The notes under the pieces are model-generated. The model did not search any database. It saw nothing but the letters and a program-made list of their open reading frames with translations, and had not been told where the DNA came from. A program made the position numbers and the translations under genes. A stretch of 64,000 bases of DNA from the NCBI GenBank assembly GCA_964572485.1, contig CAZNGA010000005.1:8400-72399 (forward strand), written 5' to 3'. Source of the stretch: an uncultured Chitinophagales bacterium (GTDB taxonomy: Bacteria > Bacteroidota > Bacteroidia > Chitinophagales > CAZNGA01). Shown in pieces: positions 3,432 to 59,881 of this stretch (positions are counted from its first letter, which is position 1; the number at the start of each line of letters is the position of its first letter).

Positions 3432-5660
3432 ATGAAAAACAAGATGAAAATTATTATCCCTCTCATTATTTATATGGTCTATTTGGGCACGGTCAATAAT
3501 ATTGTATATGCTCAAAGCTCAGAAACTACAATTACCCTGGATGATATATTCAACAAACGTAAATTTTCTGCCAAATATGTTTGGGGATTCAGATCATTGA
3601 AAGATGGCCTGCATTACTGCAAATTGCAAAGAAATAAGAATTCTGCTGCCACCGATATCCTTGAATATGAGATCGTTAGCGGAACACCTTCAGATACTAT
3701 ATTTAAAGGCGAATGGTTGAAACCTGTAACAGAAGAAGCTGATCCTAAAGTTATTCCCTTTGGGAATTATGCTTTCTGCGATGATGAATCGAAGATCCTT
3801 CTTTCCACAGCTTCTGAGACCATCTACCGTTATTCGACCAAGGAGTCCAACTATATTTGGGATAGGAAACAACAAAAGTTATCTCCCCTTTCAGAAGGAG
3901 GAAAACAGCGTTATGCTAAATTTTCACCTGACGGATCTATGGTAGCTTTTGTTAGAGATAATAATATCTTCATCAAAGATCTGGACAAGAACACAGAAAC
4001 TCAGGTAACTGCTGATGGAAAAAACAATGAAATTATAAATGGGGCTACAGATTGGGTATATGAAGAGGAATTTGGATTTACCAGGGCATTTTTCTGGGCG
4101 CCGGATGGCAGTAAGATCGCTTTTTATAGATTTGACGAAAGTAGGGTTAAGGAATATACTATGCCCAATTATGGAACTTTATACCCTGAAAACAATACAT
4201 TTAAATATCCAAAGGCCGGGGAAGAGAATGCCATAATCACTATTCATGTGTTTGACCTCAAACAAAATAAAACATCGACCATTGATATCGGAGCTGAAAA
4301 GGATCAATACATCCCTCGCATAAAGTGGACTCAAGATCCCTCAATGCTAGCAATTCAACGGATGAATCGGCACCAGAATCACCTGGAACTACTTTTCGCA
4401 GATATTTCAAATAATTCAACAAAGGTCATATTGACAGAAGAAAACAAAGCATACATAGACATAACCAATGATCTTACTTTCCTGAAAGACAACCAGCATT
4501 TCATATGGACGAGTGAAAAGAGCGGATATAATCATATCTATTTGTATTCGTTAGATGGGAAACTTGCCAATCAGATCACTCAAGGAGAATGGGAGGTGTC
4601 TTCCCTTTATGGAGTTGATGAAATAAAAGGTCTTGTCTTTTATCAGGCGTATGACAAATCCCCACTTGAGAAATATGTTTACAGTATTACCCTAGATGGA
4701 AAGAAGAAAACTCAATTGATGAAAAAAAAGGGGTACAATAGTGCAAAATTCATAGTTGATCACTCTAAATTCTTAGGTTATTTTTCAAATGTCACCACCC
4801 CTACTGAAGTTGCTTTATATACTTCCGATGGTGACAAACTGCGCATTTTGGAAGACAATGAGTCCTTAAAAGAAGTATTGGGAAAATATCCATTGACGAA
4901 AAAGGAATTCTTTGATTTTAAGACTTCTGAAGGTGTCCAATTAAATGGGTGGATGGTCAAACCCCACAATTTTGATCCTAAACAAAAATACCCTGTATTG
5001 ATGTACGTATATGGAGGTCCTGGCAGTCAGACGGTCACCAATCGTTTCGACAGCAGGGGTTATATGTGGTATCAACATCTGGCCCAAAAGGGATATATTA
5101 TTGTTTCGGTAGACAACCGTGGAACGGGAGGCAGAGGAGAAGACTTTAAAAAAATGACATACCTCAAACTAGGCCAATATGAAACCACAGATCAAATTGA
5201 AGCAGCAAAATATCTTTCCTCTCTTAAATATGTAGATCCGGAGAGAATAGGCATCTGGGGATGGAGTTATGGTGGGTACACCTCTGCCCTATGCATCACT
5301 AAGGGAGCAGATGTGTTTAAGATGGCTATAGCAGTAGCACCAGTCAGCCATTGGAAATTCTATGACACTATTTATACGGAAAGGTTCATGCGTACTCCGA
5401 AGGAAAATCCAGAAGGTTATGAAGCAGGTTCTCCATTGAACTTCACAGATAAGTTAAGAGGTAATTTTCTCATAATTCATGGCACGGCAGATGATAATGT
5501 GCATTTTCAAAATAGCGCTGAATTGATTGGTGCATTGGTGAAGTCAAATAAGCAGTTTGATATGGCCATTTATCCTGATAAGAATCACAGTATTTATGGA
5601 GGGGTTACCCGTTGGCAGTTGTATACCAAACTCACTAATTACATCCTGGAGAATTTATGA
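3432..5660 (+). CDS. dpp4: Dipeptidyl peptidase IV (S9B)
   Basis: DWVYEEE, GWSYGG nucleophile, HGTADDNVH (Asp), DKNHSI (His), signal peptide. ATG 3432 preferred over the track start at 3357. Confidence 0.93.
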   Translation: MKNKMKIIIPLIIYMVYLGTVNNIVYAQSSETTITLDDIFNKRKFSAKYVWGFRSLKDGLHYCKLQRNKNSAATDILEYEIVSGTPSDTIFKGEWLKPVTEEADPKVIPFGNYAFCDDESKILLSTASETIYRYSTKESNYIWDRKQQKLSPLSEGGKQRYAKFSPDGSMVAFVRDNNIFIKDLDKNTETQVTADGKNNEIINGATDWVYEEEFGFTRAFFWAPDGSKIAFYRFDESRVKEYTMPNYGTLYPENNTFKYPKAGEENAIITIHVFDLKQNKTSTIDIGAEKDQYIPRIKWTQDPSMLAIQRMNRHQNHLELLFADISNNSTKVILTEENKAYIDITNDLTFLKDNQHFIWTSEKSGYNHIYLYSLDGKLANQITQGEWEVSSLYGVDEIKGLVFYQAYDKSPLEKYVYSITLDGKKKTQLMKKKGYNSAKFIVDHSKFLGYFSNVTTPTEVALYTSDGDKLRILEDNESLKEVLGKYPLTKKEFFDFKTSEGVQLNGWMVKPHNFDPKQKYPVLMYVYGGPGSQTVTNRFDSRGYMWYQHLAQKGYIIVSVDNRGTGGRGEDFKKMTYLKLGQYETTDQIEAAKYLSSLKYVDPERIGIWGWSYGGYTSALCITKGADVFKMAIAVAPVSHWKFYDTIYTERFMRTPKENPEGYEAGSPLNFTDKLRGNFLIIHGTADDNVHFQNSAELIGALVKSNKQFDMAIYPDKNHSIYGGVTRWQLYTKLTNYILENL

Positions 5661-37496: not shown

Positions 37497-37766
37497 CTAT
37501 TTTAAAAGGTCGGTTACATTAGGCAACAAGGCTAATTGCCGTGCTTTCTTGATCGCAATACCTACTTTACGTTGGTATTTTAAAGAGTTTCCTGATAATC
37601 TTCTGGGCAGTATCTTACCTTGCTCATTCAAAAACTTCATTAAAAAGTCTACCCCTTTATAGTCAATGTACTTGATCTTGCTCTTTTTAAAGCGACAATA
37701 CTTTTTCTGTCTTTCTCCTATATTCGGGGAAGTCAGGAATTTAATATCTTCATTTCTAGTGCCCAT
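37497..37766 (-). CDS. rpsR: 30S ribosomal protein S18 (Bacteroidota type)
   Basis: [41 protein letters not shown]. Confidence 0.96.
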
Positions 37767-37769
37767 AAA

Positions 37770-38486
37770 TTAACTATCCTGTTTTTCTTTTGAATCAATG
37801 GTCTCTTCTTTTTCTTCTTCAGATGCTGAATCCTCCACAGGTGGAGTTTCTGTTTCTTTAGCATCAGTTTCCTTGGTATCTGCTTCCTTAGCATCGACCT
37901 CTTTTAAAGGAGCGTCCTTTTCTTTAGTAGCAGCATCTTCAGGGGTCGAAGAAGTGTCCTCTTTCGGTCCTTTATCAGATGAAGCTTCTGTTGGTTCTGT
38001 CTTAGCATCTACAACACTCTTTTCCTCTTTAAGGGTAGCGGCTTCCTTATTACTATCATCTGCTTTTACAATCTTTTCCTCAATCTTTCCCTTTACTTCT
38101 TCCTTTTCCTCTACTTTATCTGCCTTATCATCCTTATTATCGGGTTTTCCTTTACCTATTAAGCCCTTTCTCTTCCTGTCATTATAGTCAATAGCGTACT
38201 TATCCAGCTTTGTGGTTAAAAACCGCATAATACTCTCGTCACGACTAAATTCCTTCTCTAACAAAGCGATAACCTCTGGCTCAGCCTTATACTCAAACAA
38301 ATAGTAATATCCAGTTGTCTTTTTCTTGATTGGATATGCCAATTGCTTAAGTCCCCATTTCTCCTCATGGATGATCTCTGCCTTATTCTTCTTTAAAAAC
38401 GCGATATAATTGTCATACGTCTTTTTAAGATCTTCCTCAGAAAGAACAGGTGTTACAATAATTACTGTTTCGTATTGCCTCTGCAT
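37770..38486 (-). CDS. rpsF: 30S ribosomal protein S6 with long acidic C-terminal extension
   Basis: YETVIIVTPVLSE, WGLKQLAYPIKKK..GYY, IMRFLTTKLD; residues about 111-238 are low complexity. Confidence 0.95.
   Translation of the reverse strand: MQRQYETVIIVTPVLSEEDLKKTYDNYIAFLKKNKAEIIHEEKWGLKQLAYPIKKKTTGYYYLFEYKAEPEVIALLEKEFSRDESIMRFLTTKLDKYAIDYNDRKRKGLIGKGKPDNKDDKADKVEEKEEVKGKIEEKIVKADDSNKEAATLKEEKSVVDAKTEPTEASSDKGPKEDTSSTPEDAATKEKDAPLKEVDAKEADTKETDAKETETPPVEDSASEEEKEETIDSKEKQDS
37851..37904 (-). repeat. Imperfect 15-bp tandem repeat inside the rpsF tail
   Basis: tgtttctttagcatc / agtttccttggtatc / tgcttccttagcatc / gacctcttt, encoding KEVDA-KEADT-KETDA-KET. Confidence 0.75.
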
Positions 38487-38611: not shown

Positions 38612-40465
38612 ATGGATAGTTTTGTCGTCTCGGCTAGAAAATACAGACCCTCGAAGTTTGATGAAGTGGTTGGTCAGCAACTGATCACCACAACTCTTAA
38701 GAATTCAATCAAGAATAACCATTTGGCACAGTCTTTCCTTTTTTGCGGCCCTAGAGGTGTTGGAAAAACAACTTGTGCCCGAATTCTTGCTAAAATAATC
38801 AACTGCGCTCATCACACAGAAGAGGTGGAAGCTTGTAATGAGTGCGATTCATGCAAATCATTTAATCAAAATAGCTCTTTTAATATCCACGAACTTGATG
38901 CAGCATCCAATAATTCGGTTGATGATATAAGAAATTTGATCGACCAGGTACGCTATCCTCCCCAGTCAGGTAAATATAAAATATACATAATTGATGAAGT
39001 CCATATGCTCTCCCAAAGTGCTTTTAATGCTTTTTTAAAAACACTCGAAGAACCACCTTCTTATGCAATATTCATATTGGCTACTACCGAAAAGCAAAAG
39101 ATCATCCCTACCATCTTGTCAAGGTGCCAGATCTTTGATTTTAACAGAATTCAACAAGATGATATTTATGGCCACCTAGACAAAATAAGCCAAAAGGAAA
39201 ACGTATCGTATGAAGCTGAAGGATTGCATATTATTGCTCAAAAAGCAGATGGCTCCTTACGGGATGCCCTTTCTATCTTTGATAGACTCGTAAGTTATTC
39301 AAGTGGGAAGATCATTTATGTGGATGTTCTGGATAACCTTAACGTACTTGATTACGATTACTATTTTAAACTTACGGCCTTCTTCCTATCGGAAAATACC
39401 TCGGGTGCACTCAATCTATTTAATGAAATTCTTCAAAAAGGTTTCGATGGAGATGTATTTATTAATGGAATGGCTGCCCATTACCGAGATCTACTAATTT
39501 GCAAGGATCCTGAGACAATAGACCTGCTACATGTAAGTGAAGCCCTTAAAGGTAAGTATGAAGAACAAGCCGCTATTACCCCTACTTCATTTTTGATCAA
39601 TGCGATCAATATTTGCAACCAATGTGATGTTCATTACAGGATGAGCAAAAATCAACGACTGCACGTTGAGTTGAGTTTAATTAAGTTAGCTTACCTGAAT
39701 GCTACAATAGACATGGGAGCAACAATGATTCTGCAAGAAGGAGATCTAAAAAAAAAACAACCAACTCCCAAAGCAAACCTGATTGAAACTAAACCGTCTC
39801 CACCCGGGCAAGCTGCAACCTCAAGCTCATCTGAAAAAGATTTGAAATCCATAGAAAAAAGTGATGGTCCCAAAGAGGGTAAGGTCATTGAAGAAAAAAA
39901 GCAAGAGGAAAAATCTACTCCTCAAGCTACCAATGATCCTGAAGAAGAAAGCACTTATTCTTCTGTAAAGATCACTTCACTTGAAGAACTGAACTCAAAG
40001 ATTGATCAAACTAATACTGAAAATAATAATAAAGAAGAAACCAAAGAGGATCAGGATGAAAATGAAGATCAGCAAGGTTCAGCAGTTCAAATTGATGAAG
40101 CAGCCTTGGTAGAGCATTGGAGGGCCTTTAGTGAAAAAGTAAAGGGTCAAAACAAAATGAGTTTGTACTCATTACTTCACAATACAACACCTTCTGTTAA
40201 AGATAAAAATATCGTTGAGGTAGTTGTGGAGAATAAGCTCATGGAACAGCATCTTAAGGAAACCAAACAGGACTTGCTTGACTTCTTAAGAAATGAGTTA
40301 AACGAGGAACATCTTAAAATAGAGATCCGCTTAATGGAAAGAGAGAAAAATGAGGGCTCAGAAAAGCAACCCTATACCGCCAGAGAGAAGTTTGATTACA
40401 TGGCCAAACAAAATCCTGAAATAAAAAAAATGGTGAAAAAGTTGGATTTAGAACTTGAATTATAG
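38612..40465 (+). CDS. dnaX: DNA polymerase III subunit gamma/tau
   Basis: ARKYRP, GPRGVGKTT, CNECDSC, ELDAASNN, IDEVHML, TILSRCQ, GSLRDA; charged linker and C-terminal domain. Confidence 0.97.
   Translation: MDSFVVSARKYRPSKFDEVVGQQLITTTLKNSIKNNHLAQSFLFCGPRGVGKTTCARILAKIINCAHHTEEVEACNECDSCKSFNQNSSFNIHELDAASNNSVDDIRNLIDQVRYPPQSGKYKIYIIDEVHMLSQSAFNAFLKTLEEPPSYAIFILATTEKQKIIPTILSRCQIFDFNRIQQDDIYGHLDKISQKENVSYEAEGLHIIAQKADGSLRDALSIFDRLVSYSSGKIIYVDVLDNLNVLDYDYYFKLTAFFLSENTSGALNLFNEILQKGFDGDVFINGMAAHYRDLLICKDPETIDLLHVSEALKGKYEEQAAITPTSFLINAINICNQCDVHYRMSKNQRLHVELSLIKLAYLNATIDMGATMILQEGDLKKKQPTPKANLIETKPSPPGQAATSSSSEKDLKSIEKSDGPKEGKVIEEKKQEEKSTPQATNDPEEESTYSSVKITSLEELNSKIDQTNTENNNKEETKEDQDENEDQQGSAVQIDEAALVEHWRAFSEKVKGQNKMSLYSLLHNTTPSVKDKNIVEVVVENKLMEQHLKETKQDLLDFLRNELNEEHLKIEIRLMEREKNEGSEKQPYTAREKFDYMAKQNPEIKKMVKKLDLELEL
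39748..39757 (+). other. A10 run in dnaX, candidate recoding (slippage) site
   Basis: CT-AAAAAAAAAA-C at codons 379-382; both shifted frames stop within 10 codons. Confidence 0.6.
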
Positions 40466-40554: not shown

Positions 40555-42618
40555 ATGAAATCAATTATCATTATCATTACTATGCTTTTTTTAGGGTATG
40601 TGCAACTTTATGGAGTAGATACAAAGAGAGATATAAAGGGAGCTGAAAAGTTGATTAACAAAGCAGACAAGCTTTTGGAGAAGAATTATCTGCCACTGTA
40701 TAGCCAAGCACTAGAATTATATTTGGAAGCCATTAAACTGGATACAAAAAATGCAATGCTCAATTTCAAAATTGGGGCCTGTTATATCAGCTCGATTGAA
40801 AAGTCAAAAGCATTGCCCTACTTCTTAAAAGCTCTGGAACTTGATCCTCAAGTAAATGATGAGACTTATTTTTTGGTGGGTAAGATCTACCATCTAAATT
40901 ACAAATTTGATAAAGCAATATCTTACTATAACAAGTATAAGGCTATTCTTACACCTATAGAGCTAACAAATAAAAAGGTATTAAGGATCATCTCTGAAGC
41001 GATAAGAGGGTATAAACCCTTTGAATTATCAGAAGAGGTGGAGATAAAGAATATCGTTAAGATCATTGAAAAAAGGGTCTACGAATGTGAAAGTGGGAAA
41101 AAATTCTTTGAAAATCCCGTCGAAGCCATTGTTACCAATGTCAGCTCAAGACTTAATTCATCTTATCCCGATTACGTTCCTGTAATTTCTGCTGATGAAT
41201 CTGTAATGTATTTTACTTCAAGAAAAAGCACTACTACCGGGGGGAAAAGAGATAAATTCGATGGCAATTTCTTTGAGGACATATATGTTTCTCATCGCCA
41301 CCAAAGACAATGGAGTGAACCAAAAAATCTCGGCCCCCCTATTAATACTGAATCTCATGATGCTGCAGTTGGCCTATCTCATGATGGTCAGATATTGTAC
41401 ATTTTTAAAGATGAAAACCGTGGAGATATTTTCGAATGTAACCTTCAGGGAACTGAGTGGAGCAAACCAAGAAGTATGAAAGAGATCAATTCTAAATACA
41501 AAGAGGGTTCGGCAGCTATCTCCGCCGATGGTAAAAAGTTCTTTTTCACTAGCAATAGAGAAGGGACCTATGGGGGCATGGATATTTATATTTGCGGGTT
41601 AATGGAAAATGGGAAGTGGGGCGAACCCACCAATATGGGACCTAATATTAACACCGAATATGATGAAGATGGTGTTTTCTTTCATCCCAATGGAAAAACC
41701 TTATATTTTAGCTCAACGGGCCATAATTCTATGGGTGAATACGATATCTTCAAAGCCGATTTTATTGGTGATACGATGTGGACCAAACCGGTAAACCTGG
41801 GATATCCTATTAATACTACCGGTGATGACATTTTTTATGTCCTTTCTGCCAGCGGCCTACATGGCTACTATTCATCGTCCCGCAAAGGTGGGTCCGGTGA
41901 AAAAGATATCTATATGATCACCATGCCCCAGGAAATGAGTATCAAGGGAAAAGATATTGAACGGGACCCTGTTAATCCTCTAACTCTCGTAAAAGGTATT
42001 ATAGTTGACGCCGTAACTCAGGTTCCAATTGAGGCAGATATCGAAGTGACAAATAATAGTATGATAAAGGTCATCTCCAAACTGAAGTCAAATAGTAAAA
42101 CAGGGAAGTATATTATCGCCCTCCCCTCGGGAAAAAACTATGGGATCTCTGTAAAAAAAGCGGGATACCTTTTCCACTCTGAAAATTTCAATATCGACCC
42201 CTCTACCGATTATAGAGAAGTAGTCATTAAGATCGAATTAAAAAAATTAGAAGTTGGCTCTAAGGTGGTTCTAAAGAATTGCTTCTTTGATTTTGGTAAT
42301 GCTGTCCTTACCGTGGAATCTGTGGCCGAACTGAATAGGTTGATCACCTTGCTACGAGAAGTACCTGAAATGAAAATTGAAGTCTCAGGCCATACAGATG
42401 ATAAAGGTAGTGCAGAGTTCAACAAGGAACTATCAACTAAAAGAGCCCAGGCAGTTGTGGATTTCCTTGTGGAATATGGAATTGATCGCAGCAGACTAAC
42501 TGCTGTAGGTTATGGTGAAGAAAAGCCGGTGACATTAAATACCAACATTGATGGAAGTGATAACCCTGATGGAAGACAGATAAATAGACGAGTTGAATTT
42601 GAAATAATTGAAAATTAG
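40555..42618 (+). CDS. TPR + PD40 + OmpA-C domain protein (PorE-like architecture)
   Basis: N-terminal TPRs, repeated P.ISADG/PFFHPNG PD40 units, C-terminal SGHTDDKG...NRRVEFEI peptidoglycan-binding domain. Confidence 0.85.
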   Translation: MKSIIIIITMLFLGYVQLYGVDTKRDIKGAEKLINKADKLLEKNYLPLYSQALELYLEAIKLDTKNAMLNFKIGACYISSIEKSKALPYFLKALELDPQVNDETYFLVGKIYHLNYKFDKAISYYNKYKAILTPIELTNKKVLRIISEAIRGYKPFELSEEVEIKNIVKIIEKRVYECESGKKFFENPVEAIVTNVSSRLNSSYPDYVPVISADESVMYFTSRKSTTTGGKRDKFDGNFFEDIYVSHRHQRQWSEPKNLGPPINTESHDAAVGLSHDGQILYIFKDENRGDIFECNLQGTEWSKPRSMKEINSKYKEGSAAISADGKKFFFTSNREGTYGGMDIYICGLMENGKWGEPTNMGPNINTEYDEDGVFFHPNGKTLYFSSTGHNSMGEYDIFKADFIGDTMWTKPVNLGYPINTTGDDIFYVLSASGLHGYYSSSRKGGSGEKDIYMITMPQEMSIKGKDIERDPVNPLTLVKGIIVDAVTQVPIEADIEVTNNSMIKVISKLKSNSKTGKYIIALPSGKNYGISVKKAGYLFHSENFNIDPSTDYREVVIKIELKKLEVGSKVVLKNCFFDFGNAVLTVESVAELNRLITLLREVPEMKIEVSGHTDDKGSAEFNKELSTKRAQAVVDFLVEYGIDRSRLTAVGYGEEKPVTLNTNIDGSDNPDGRQINRRVEFEIIEN

Positions 42619-55522: not shown

Positions 55523-55541
55523 TTTTACATAAAATAGAGTT

Positions 55542-55997
55542 GCAGGCTGTTCTATCGCTCTGAACAATGCATGCCATTGATCAGGGAGGAAAGTCCGGAC
55601 AACACAGAGCGCCGCACCTCCTAACAGGAGGGCCTTGAATATTAAAGATCAAAGAGGTGTGTTTACATACCTTAATGATTTCAAGGACAGCAAGTGCCAC
55701 AGAAAATAACCTCCAAATCCGCCGAATGGCGGACGGGAAGGGTGAAAAGGTGGGGTAAGAGCCCACCCTTGTTTCGGGTAACCGTTTCATGGGGCAAACC
55801 TTGCGGGTTGAAAAGCTAAATAGATCCCGATTCGTTAAGTAAGAACTTTGTTCTTGCGTAGAATAGAATCGCTCGTTCAAATTTTCCAATATTTGGAAAT
55901 GTCGGGAAGGGTAAGCTGTTTGACCCTGTTGGTGACAACAGGGCTAGAGAAATGATAGAAGCCCTTCGGGGTAACAGAATCCGGCTTACAGGCCTGT
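55542..55997 (+). ncRNA. rnpB: RNase P RNA (bacterial type A)
   Basis: GAGGAAAGTCCGG at 55586-55598, AGTGCCACAGAAA, GGTAAGAGCCC, GGCAAACC, AACAGAATCCGGCTTAC at 55973-55989; P1 formed by gcaggctgt and acaggcctgt. Confidence 0.95.
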
Positions 55998-56040
55998 GGC
56001 TTTTATTTTTGCAATTTACTAACACTAAAGAGACGATCAC

Positions 56041-59648: not shown

Positions 59649-59881
59649 TCTTCGTAATTTTATTAATGATTTCGCGAATTATTTGATCAATATATACAAA
59701 TTTAACAAAAGAAGAGATATCATTAGGCATTTATTGGAATTTATTTAACAATTGGAGTGTTGATATGTATTACAGGCCAATTCTCAAAAAACTTTTTTTT
59801 TTGTGGAATACTTTATAAATTACGGCCAAAAGTCAATAATCCTCGTACAAAGGTATATTAACGGATAAACAATATCGTAAA

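Follow-up and report, generated by a model that had tools for sequence, protein, structure and literature searches.

A run of ten A residues (A10) inside the dnaX gene of an uncultured Chitinophagales bacterium is, judging from sequence comparison, most probably a site of programmed transcriptional slippage like that in dnaX of Thermus thermophilus. The run is located at 39748..39757 (+) of the window, which is the whole stretch of 64,000 nucleotides (nt) analysed here. When read unshifted, the dnaX open reading frame (ORF; 38612..40465, +) encodes a tau protein of 617 amino acids (aa), and a change in the length of the run would lead to a shorter gamma protein.

The ORF was identified as dnaX from the ORF list, NCBIfam and Pfam. 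The NCBIfam model NF011531 (DNA polymerase III subunit gamma/tau) matched residues 1-615 with 799 bits and TIGR02397 (dnaX_nterm) matched residues 6-359, while Pfam gave DNA_pol3_delta2, DNAX_ATPase_lid and DNA_pol3_gamma3 (domain III). Residues 3-360 aligned with residues 2-357 of Escherichia coli DnaX, covering domains I-III (8giy_B, 1jr3_A and others; E = 6e-67). According to this alignment and TIGR02397, the clamp-loader domains I-III common to tau and gamma occupy codons 1-360 (38612..39691, +). The part belonging to tau only (39758..40462, +; tblastn, Pfam and NF011531) consists of a charged low-complexity linker followed by a conserved C-terminal domain at about codons 486-617 (40067-40462, +; tblastn and NF011531). 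Residues 486-617 found a homologous C-terminal region in 45 related loci by tblastn, and the Pfam match to DnaX_C was weak (residues 498-587, E = 0.002). The C-terminal domain of the window gene is in frame 0, not in another frame as in the two-ORF form of dnaX described below. In a tree of DnaX N-terminal sequences the window gene was placed beside Saprospiraceae and Aureispira, and the best whole-length DnaX identity among 185,579 species genomes was only about 51%. An identical protein was encoded by a single contig, from a JGI metagenome, which is most likely the source assembly of the window and hence no independent check.

The run starts at the third base of the Leu379 codon CTA and continues through Lys380-382 (AAA AAA AAA). 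Codons 379-383 (L K K K Q) read CTA AAA AAA AAA CAA (39746-39760) and the flanking context at 39740-39763 is GGA GAT CTA AAA AAA AAA CAA CCA. A Shine-Dalgarno (SD)-like hexamer, AAGGAG (39738..39743, +), is located 4 nt 5' of the run, although it may simply reflect the E-G-D codons. Both alternative frames are closed downstream by TGA codons at +23 and +27 nt from the run. The +1-frame TGA (39780..39782, +) ends the product of an A9 or A12 message, and the -1-frame TGA (39784..39786, +) ends that of an A11 or A8 message as well as the product of a -1 ribosomal shift. When the run length was changed in silico, A11 gave 391 aa with the C-terminus ...KKKTTNSQSKPD, A9 gave 389 aa with the C-terminus ...KKNNQLPKQT, A8 and A12 gave 390 aa each, and A7, A10 and A13 gave full-length products of 616, 617 and 618 aa, respectively.

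The initial annotation of this DNA had already pointed to the run as a possible source of gamma. Its sequence, codon numbers and run coordinates were all correct when the window was read again, and its peptides, product lengths (391, 389 and 617 aa) and stop positions were reproduced in silico. It had also placed the run at the end of the clamp-loader domains, and alignment with E. coli DnaX agreed with this, the run beginning about 20 residues past the last helix of domain III, where the branch point between gamma and tau is expected. The statement that no longer homopolymer occurs in any coding sequence of the window held as well, the sole other run of ten (T10, 59793-59802) being intergenic. 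A single A10 within a 64-kb window is in itself unremarkable, as about 0.44 A runs of at least ten are expected by chance per 64 kb at 38.6% GC under an independent-bases model. The run is significant because it is conserved at the same site in orthologues.

In the proposed mechanism, RNA polymerase that has passed the run would hold an RNA-DNA hybrid made up of A:T pairs throughout, which would be able to realign. The outcome would be a mixture of dnaX mRNAs with A9, A10, A11, A12 and other run lengths. Those with A10, A7 or A13 would be translated into full-length tau of 617 +/- 1 aa, containing domains I-III, the linker and the C-terminal domain. The linker and C-terminal domain are the parts of E. 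coli tau that bind DnaB helicase and the alpha subunit of Pol III. With any other run length, translation would end at one of the two TGA codons, 23-29 nt past the run, and the product would be a gamma of 389-391 aa, with domains I-III and a short tail in place of the C-terminal domains. We infer that slippage by the polymerase of the window organism is frequent enough to be useful, and that the cell produces and uses both proteins.

Conservation of the run and of the tau reading frame in Bacteroidota

The comparison set contained 81 dnaX genes, namely the window gene and 80 loci of Bacteroidota species (573 kb in total). One genome per species was scanned and the loci were picked by protein similarity only. 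An uninterrupted run of A9 to A13 shortly after domain III was present in 67 of the 81 genes and in several classes. A10 was by far the most frequent form (n = 58), followed by A9 (n = 5), A11 (n = 2), A12 (n = 1) and A13 (n = 1). The distance between domain III and the run was 6-80 nt in these 67 genes, with one outlier at 284 nt. Only 18 other A or T runs of at least nine were found in the same 573 kb.

The run was also retained in genomes of 54-62% GC, where AAA is the minority lysine codon (AAA fraction 0.21-0.44); examples are the Hymenobacter polaris locus (62% GC) and L015 (59%). Calculated from the AAA/AAG usage of each gene, the probability that all lysine codons of the runs are AAA was about 1e-31, a value that is overstated since the species are not independent. 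The first A was at codon position 1, 2 and 3 in 8, 36 and 23 genes (phases 0, 1 and 2), respectively. As the codon phase varies, it is the nucleotide homopolymer that is conserved and not a KKK peptide or an in-phase heptamer. The initial annotation had named AAA-only lysine codons in orthologues as a check, and the run was unbroken by AAG in these 67 genes. Its suggestion of transcriptional slippage or frameshifting on the A run as the source of tau and gamma in this lineage is thus supported by the orthologue comparison.

In all 67 run-bearing genes only one frame stays open past the run. It continues for about 200-290 codons until tau ends, and the open frame is about 525-680 codons long in all. 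Both remaining frames were closed within 45 nt in 67 of 67 genes and within 21 nt in 90% of them. At random positions of the same genes the corresponding values were 44% and 17.5%, with a median stop distance of 28 nt. The arrangement A10-NN-CTGA was frequent among the relatives, as it is in Thermus.

The frame that leads to tau was not the same in all species. Tau was in frame 0 in 54 genes including that of the window, in the -1 frame in 11 and in the +1 frame in two (L051 and L066). In the 13 relatives of the latter two groups, which are of the two-ORF type, the zero frame ends just after the run and the C-terminal part of tau is in another frame, so that a shift at the run is obligatory in these species; those with tau in the -1 frame need one extra A. 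Eleven loci belong to the two-ORF type of Antonov et al. (2013), e.g. L032, L050, L057, L060-L062, L064, L065, L068 and L074. The out-of-frame genes still carry A10, except L068 (A12) and L038 (A13), and therefore they are not the result of miscounted homopolymers. By parsimony on a neighbour-joining DnaX tree, the tau frame changed at least seven times among the run-bearing genes, which suggests that the single-ORF and two-ORF forms interconvert repeatedly. Such a device, apparently indifferent to the frame of tau and working in both directions, is what heterogeneity of transcripts predicts. Shifts in both directions were taken by Antonov et al. (2013) as a criterion for transcriptional realignment over ribosomal frameshifting (PMC3711429). 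The occurrence of tau in frame 0 or -1 under a constant A10 would fit a similar abundance of transcripts with A10 and with A11.

Run length in RNA and DNA and alternative explanations

RNA and DNA sequences covering the run were compared in L062, a distant relative of the two-ORF type that belongs to a freshwater lineage of Flavobacteriia. Its run is an A10 (4100-4109), and its tau is in the -1 frame. Since this evidence consists of assembled contigs, which represent the dominant path only, proportions of run lengths are not derivable from it. Among the public metatranscriptomes, X1 had A11 in two contigs, one of them 260 nt long without any other difference, X2 had A11, and X10 had A11 in a contig of 150 nt, again without other difference. 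In X6 one contig had A12 and two more stopped inside the run. Contigs of X3 ended and started at the run, and X4 and X8 showed A10. In contrast, the contigs from eight DNA runs of seven studies (0.2-25 kb) all spanned the run as A10 without an indel. When only run-spanning contigs were considered, an insertion was found in 4 of 6 RNA runs and in 0 of 8 DNA runs (Fisher p = 0.015). In L062, tau is brought into frame by A11. No contig covering the L062 site was found in X5, X9, X12 or eight further metatranscriptomes, and X7 and X11 contained only contigs stopping short of the run. The single-ORF gene L036, from a Lake Mendota Chitinophagaceae, was matched by DNA runs only, with no contig in four freshwater metatranscriptomes.

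Several points weigh against transcriptional slippage as the explanation for the window gene. The window sequence had no match in public sequencing runs, and the RNA contigs come from the relative L062 only. The RNA and DNA of L062 were from different studies, and a co-occurring strain with a genomic A11 might explain the contrast between them. Slippage of reverse transcriptase on A10 could have added some of the indels. The off-frame stops of the window, 23 and 27 nt from the run, are at the far end of the distribution in the family (median 6 nt), and stops at these distances are not unusual for one AT-rich gene taken alone. Finally, an A10 always holds an in-phase A_AAA_AAA, and with AAGGAG 4 nt upstream a -1 ribosomal shift may contribute.

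The most serious alternative, although we regard it as unlikely, is that gamma is made mainly in this last way, by -1 programmed ribosomal frameshifting on A_AAA_AAA (39748-39754), perhaps aided by the AAGGAG, and termination at the TGA of 39784-86, with the mRNA at its templated length. The heptamer is in X_XXY_YYZ phase, E. coli dnaX uses -1 ribosomal frameshifting (PMC5009743), and the relative L021 has a convincing cassette of this kind. SD-like tetramers (GGAG, GAGG, AGGA) were present within 15 nt 5' of the run at 23 of 67 loci (34%) compared with 8% when 15-mers were drawn at random from these genes, an enrichment of about 4-fold that is uncorrected for phylogeny and for Gly/Glu codon content. 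However, SD pairing is little used by the ribosomes of Bacteroidota. The heptamer A_AAA_AAA is also far less shift-prone than A_AAA_AAG in E. coli (PMC5009743), and within the A10 of the window no AAG is available to form an in-phase A_AAA_AAG.

The initial annotation had noted no obvious stimulatory hairpin downstream, and folding bore this out: the sequence after the run formed no stem-loop or pseudoknot more stable than shuffled sequences (z = +0.17 for 39758-39830 and z = +1.18 for 39758-39880). The Rfam DnaX element was absent at the gathering score and, in 39600-39950, also at E <= 10. Since the window has neither a hairpin nor this element, transcriptional slippage is favoured over ribosomal frameshifting. 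Across the family, selection appears to hold ten A's in all three phases where seven would be enough, a -1 shift is of no use to L051 and L066, whose tau is in the +1 frame, and the extra A's in the RNA contigs of L062 also speak against a shift on the ribosome.

It is less probable still that the run has no recoding function and merely reflects the lysine-rich start of a linker in an AT-rich genome, followed by off-frame stops that arose by chance. The window alone would be compatible with this, because about 0.4 such A runs per 64 kb are expected from independent bases, AAA is commoner than AAG for lysine in the window dnaX (13 vs 10), and the off-frame stops at 23-27 nt are near the null median. 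The comparison set argues otherwise, as the run is kept uninterrupted in most species, GC-rich ones included, while its codon phase varies, the off-frame stops across the family are much nearer than by chance, and some species would make no tau without a shift at the run. Least probable of all is that the tract varies in the DNA itself, through phase variation by slipped-strand mispairing, or that the assembly miscounted it, with tau or gamma coming from different cells or genomes: long homopolymers are classical contingency loci and the few relatives with A9, A11, A12 or A13 may reflect real DNA variation or assembly error, but dnaX is essential and a cell without tau is not expected to be viable, the A10 of the window keeps tau in frame, the run is exactly A10 in 58 of 67 genes, and the DNA of the L062 lineage had a fixed A10 in every run, with long contigs unbroken across it.

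dnaX genes without the run

The run was absent in 14 of the 81 genes, and some of these carried other putative recoding signals. In L052 (2788-2835) and L058 (4099-4146) an in-frame TAG stood directly after domain III and tau continued in the same frame, with no A run. More genes of this UAG type were found by scanning metagenomes with 17 nt of TAG context, namely L088, L094, L096, L107, L108, L119, L131, L132, L144, L146, L159, L160, L165, L175, L180, L186 and L190. In total, the UAG type comprised 19 distinct genes of a rumen/gut Bacteroidales clade, with about 200-250 open codons past the TAG where the contig allowed. The site has the conserved element TAG ATTGCAAGGTCGCC NN AGGCGG RGCACGG with a small predicted hairpin, the 5' arm of which is fixed by the search pattern. 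Among 15 non-redundant sequences, the 15 nt past the search pattern had 82% pairwise identity with AGGCGG invariant, and the values were 58% in the 30 nt upstream and 36% farther downstream. Neither an Rfam match for the element 3' of the UAG nor a suppressor tRNA on the 19 UAG-type contigs was found.

Reassignment of the genetic code was considered for the TAG of L058 and rejected, as the TAG-interrupted ORFs of the + strand were antisense to a long minus-strand gene and the genes next to L058 dnaX gave no indication of a changed code. Several genes of the clade also end in TAG, including tau itself in L094, L108 and L144, where TAG is the normal stop. From its sequence, the UAG type looks like a candidate for programmed UAG read-through making tau. 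Three routes to gamma have been counted, namely frameshifting, slippage and proteolysis (PMC4756838), and read-through to tau, if true, would be distinct from all three. No paper describing read-through in dnaX was found in a literature search.

The locus L021, from a Bacteroidota metagenome-assembled genome, lacked A10 and had an E. coli-like -1 cassette at 4113-4165. It consists of GGAGGG, a spacer of 9 nt and an in-phase A_AAA_AAG (4128-4134), with a hairpin of -16.9 kcal/mol (z = -2.7) starting 5 nt past the heptamer and a -1-frame TGA at 4137-4139; the cassette had no Rfam match. L021 thus serves as an example of a ribosomal frameshift cassette in Bacteroidota, and its A_AAA_AAG and hairpin have no counterpart in the window.

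A wider reading, which we put forward tentatively and hold at slightly less than an even chance, is that slippage on A10 is the ancestral and nearly universal route to gamma in Bacteroidota and is "frame-agnostic". With transcripts of A10 and A11 at similar levels, neutral indels would then move tau among frames 0, -1 and +1, at least seven times in the 67 species, while selection fixes the run at exactly ten. Lineages without the run would have kept gamma and switched recoding signals, the substitutes being the A_AAA_AAG cassette of L021 and, in the Bacteroidales clade, the in-frame UAG with its 30-nt 3' element.

Other genes without a long run were also noted. Pontibacter rugosus (L010, 1267-1273) had only A7 (TCA AAA AAA GCT AAG) with a -1-frame TAA directly after it, and no significant structure was found downstream of the A7 (z = -0.3). 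In L072 (4077-4200) the zero frame ends at a stop (…SREC*), after which tau is encoded in the +1 frame, and homopolymers at the junction do not exceed A5; the locus could have another kind of recoding site, be a pseudogene or have been misassembled. Four loci of gut Bacteroidaceae (L024, L027, L042 and L059) had a single-ORF dnaX without an A run. They shared GGG(GCG)TAG about 40-60 nt past domain III, with the TAG in the -1 frame after the G run (G7 in L027), which may only reflect a conserved G-R-S-P peptide.

In the window, the dnaX gene is preceded by a divergent rpsF-rpsR(-rplI) ribosomal protein cluster (37497-38486, -), whose bS6 protein ends in an extended acidic tail, about 120 residues in length. 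It is followed by a gene for a 687-aa protein with TPR, PD40 and OmpA domains (40555-42618, +). A full-length bacterial RNase P RNA of class A was found at 55539-56004 (+; 241.9 bits).

Comparison with known systems

The mechanism, the gene and the occurrence of the A10 run at the level of the phylum are already on record. Antonov et al. (2013) described 17 two-ORF dnaX genes where tau requires a shift, 9 of which carry ten A's (PMC3711429). Their aligned species were Flavobacterium johnsoniae, F. psychrophilum, Cytophaga hutchinsonii, Capnocytophaga ochracea, several Chlorobi and Coraliomargarita (PMC3711429 Fig. S3, GeneTack cluster). These genes resemble that of the window in belonging to the same phylum-level group, in having A10 at the same gene position and in the mechanism proposed. 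The two-ORF genes, however, yield gamma by default and tau only after a slip, whereas the window gene yields tau by default and would need slippage for gamma. Searches for disrupted or extended ORFs overlook shifts that shorten the product (Baranov et al. 2005, PMC1088944; Sharma et al. 2014, PMC4066793). Published surveys listed only two-ORF Bacteroidetes/Chlorobi because single-ORF sites are invisible to such searches, and no survey of single-ORF A10 dnaX in Bacteroidota was found in the searchable literature.

What is added here is, first, the finding that most run-bearing genes (54 of 67) have the single-ORF form; second, the repeated interconversion of the two forms; and third, the extra A's in public metatranscriptome contigs of L062. 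For the annotation of the window this means one dnaX gene with two predicted products, of which the 389-391-aa gamma is never listed by ordinary gene callers. The results also bear on whether gamma is needed for function. The persistence of a mutagenic A10 tract in an essential gene throughout much of the phylum, including a genome of 62% GC, strongly indicates that it is. In addition, the family offers a natural system for measuring how the slippage rates of RNA polymerase are tuned.

Among other known systems, slippage in mxiE of Shigella flexneri and in transposases of insertion sequence (IS) elements is required for the longer product (PMC1088944). This is the mechanism of the two-ORF relatives, in which a non-templated base fuses two ORFs, but it concerns other genes, and slippage in the window would shorten the product. 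In Caulobacter crescentus gamma is formed from tau by ClpXP processing (Vass & Chien 2013, cited in PMC4756838). There too two DnaX forms come from one gene, as proposed here, but the process is post-translational and involves no recoding signal.

The window resembles E. coli dnaX in the gene itself, in a predicted gamma made up of domains I-III and a short novel tail, in a shift site of lysine codons and in the SD-like hexamer upstream. E. coli dnaX has A_AAA_AAG, an upstream SD sequence, a 3' stem-loop and an Rfam element, whereas A_AAA_AAG, the stem-loop and the Rfam match are missing in the window, and the SD-like spacer is 4 nt compared with about 10 nt in E. coli. Moreover, the conserved feature here is a homopolymer of 10 nt in any phase, and RNA of L062 has extra A's.

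The closest counterpart is dnaX of T. thermophilus, in which stops follow an A9 run in each of the two alternative frames and gamma arises from slipped transcripts (Larsen et al. 2000, according to PMC1088944 and PMC5009743); it also has GAGGGAG upstream of its run. As in Thermus, tau of the window is a single ORF with a sense-strand A homopolymer of at least the length of the RNA-DNA hybrid, near stops close both alternative frames, any change in length other than a multiple of three would give gamma, and RNA structure would be unneeded. The window differs from Thermus in having A10, in the place of the run after domain III at codon 380 of 617, and in a predicted gamma of 389-391 aa. It also belongs to Bacteroidota, has 38.6% GC, and its slippage is deduced from sequence. 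The sequence features of the Thermus-type single-ORF arrangement were found in the window: the dnaX gene, the place of the site after domain III, a run of at least nine, tau in frame 0, closure of both alternatives and conservation of the run.

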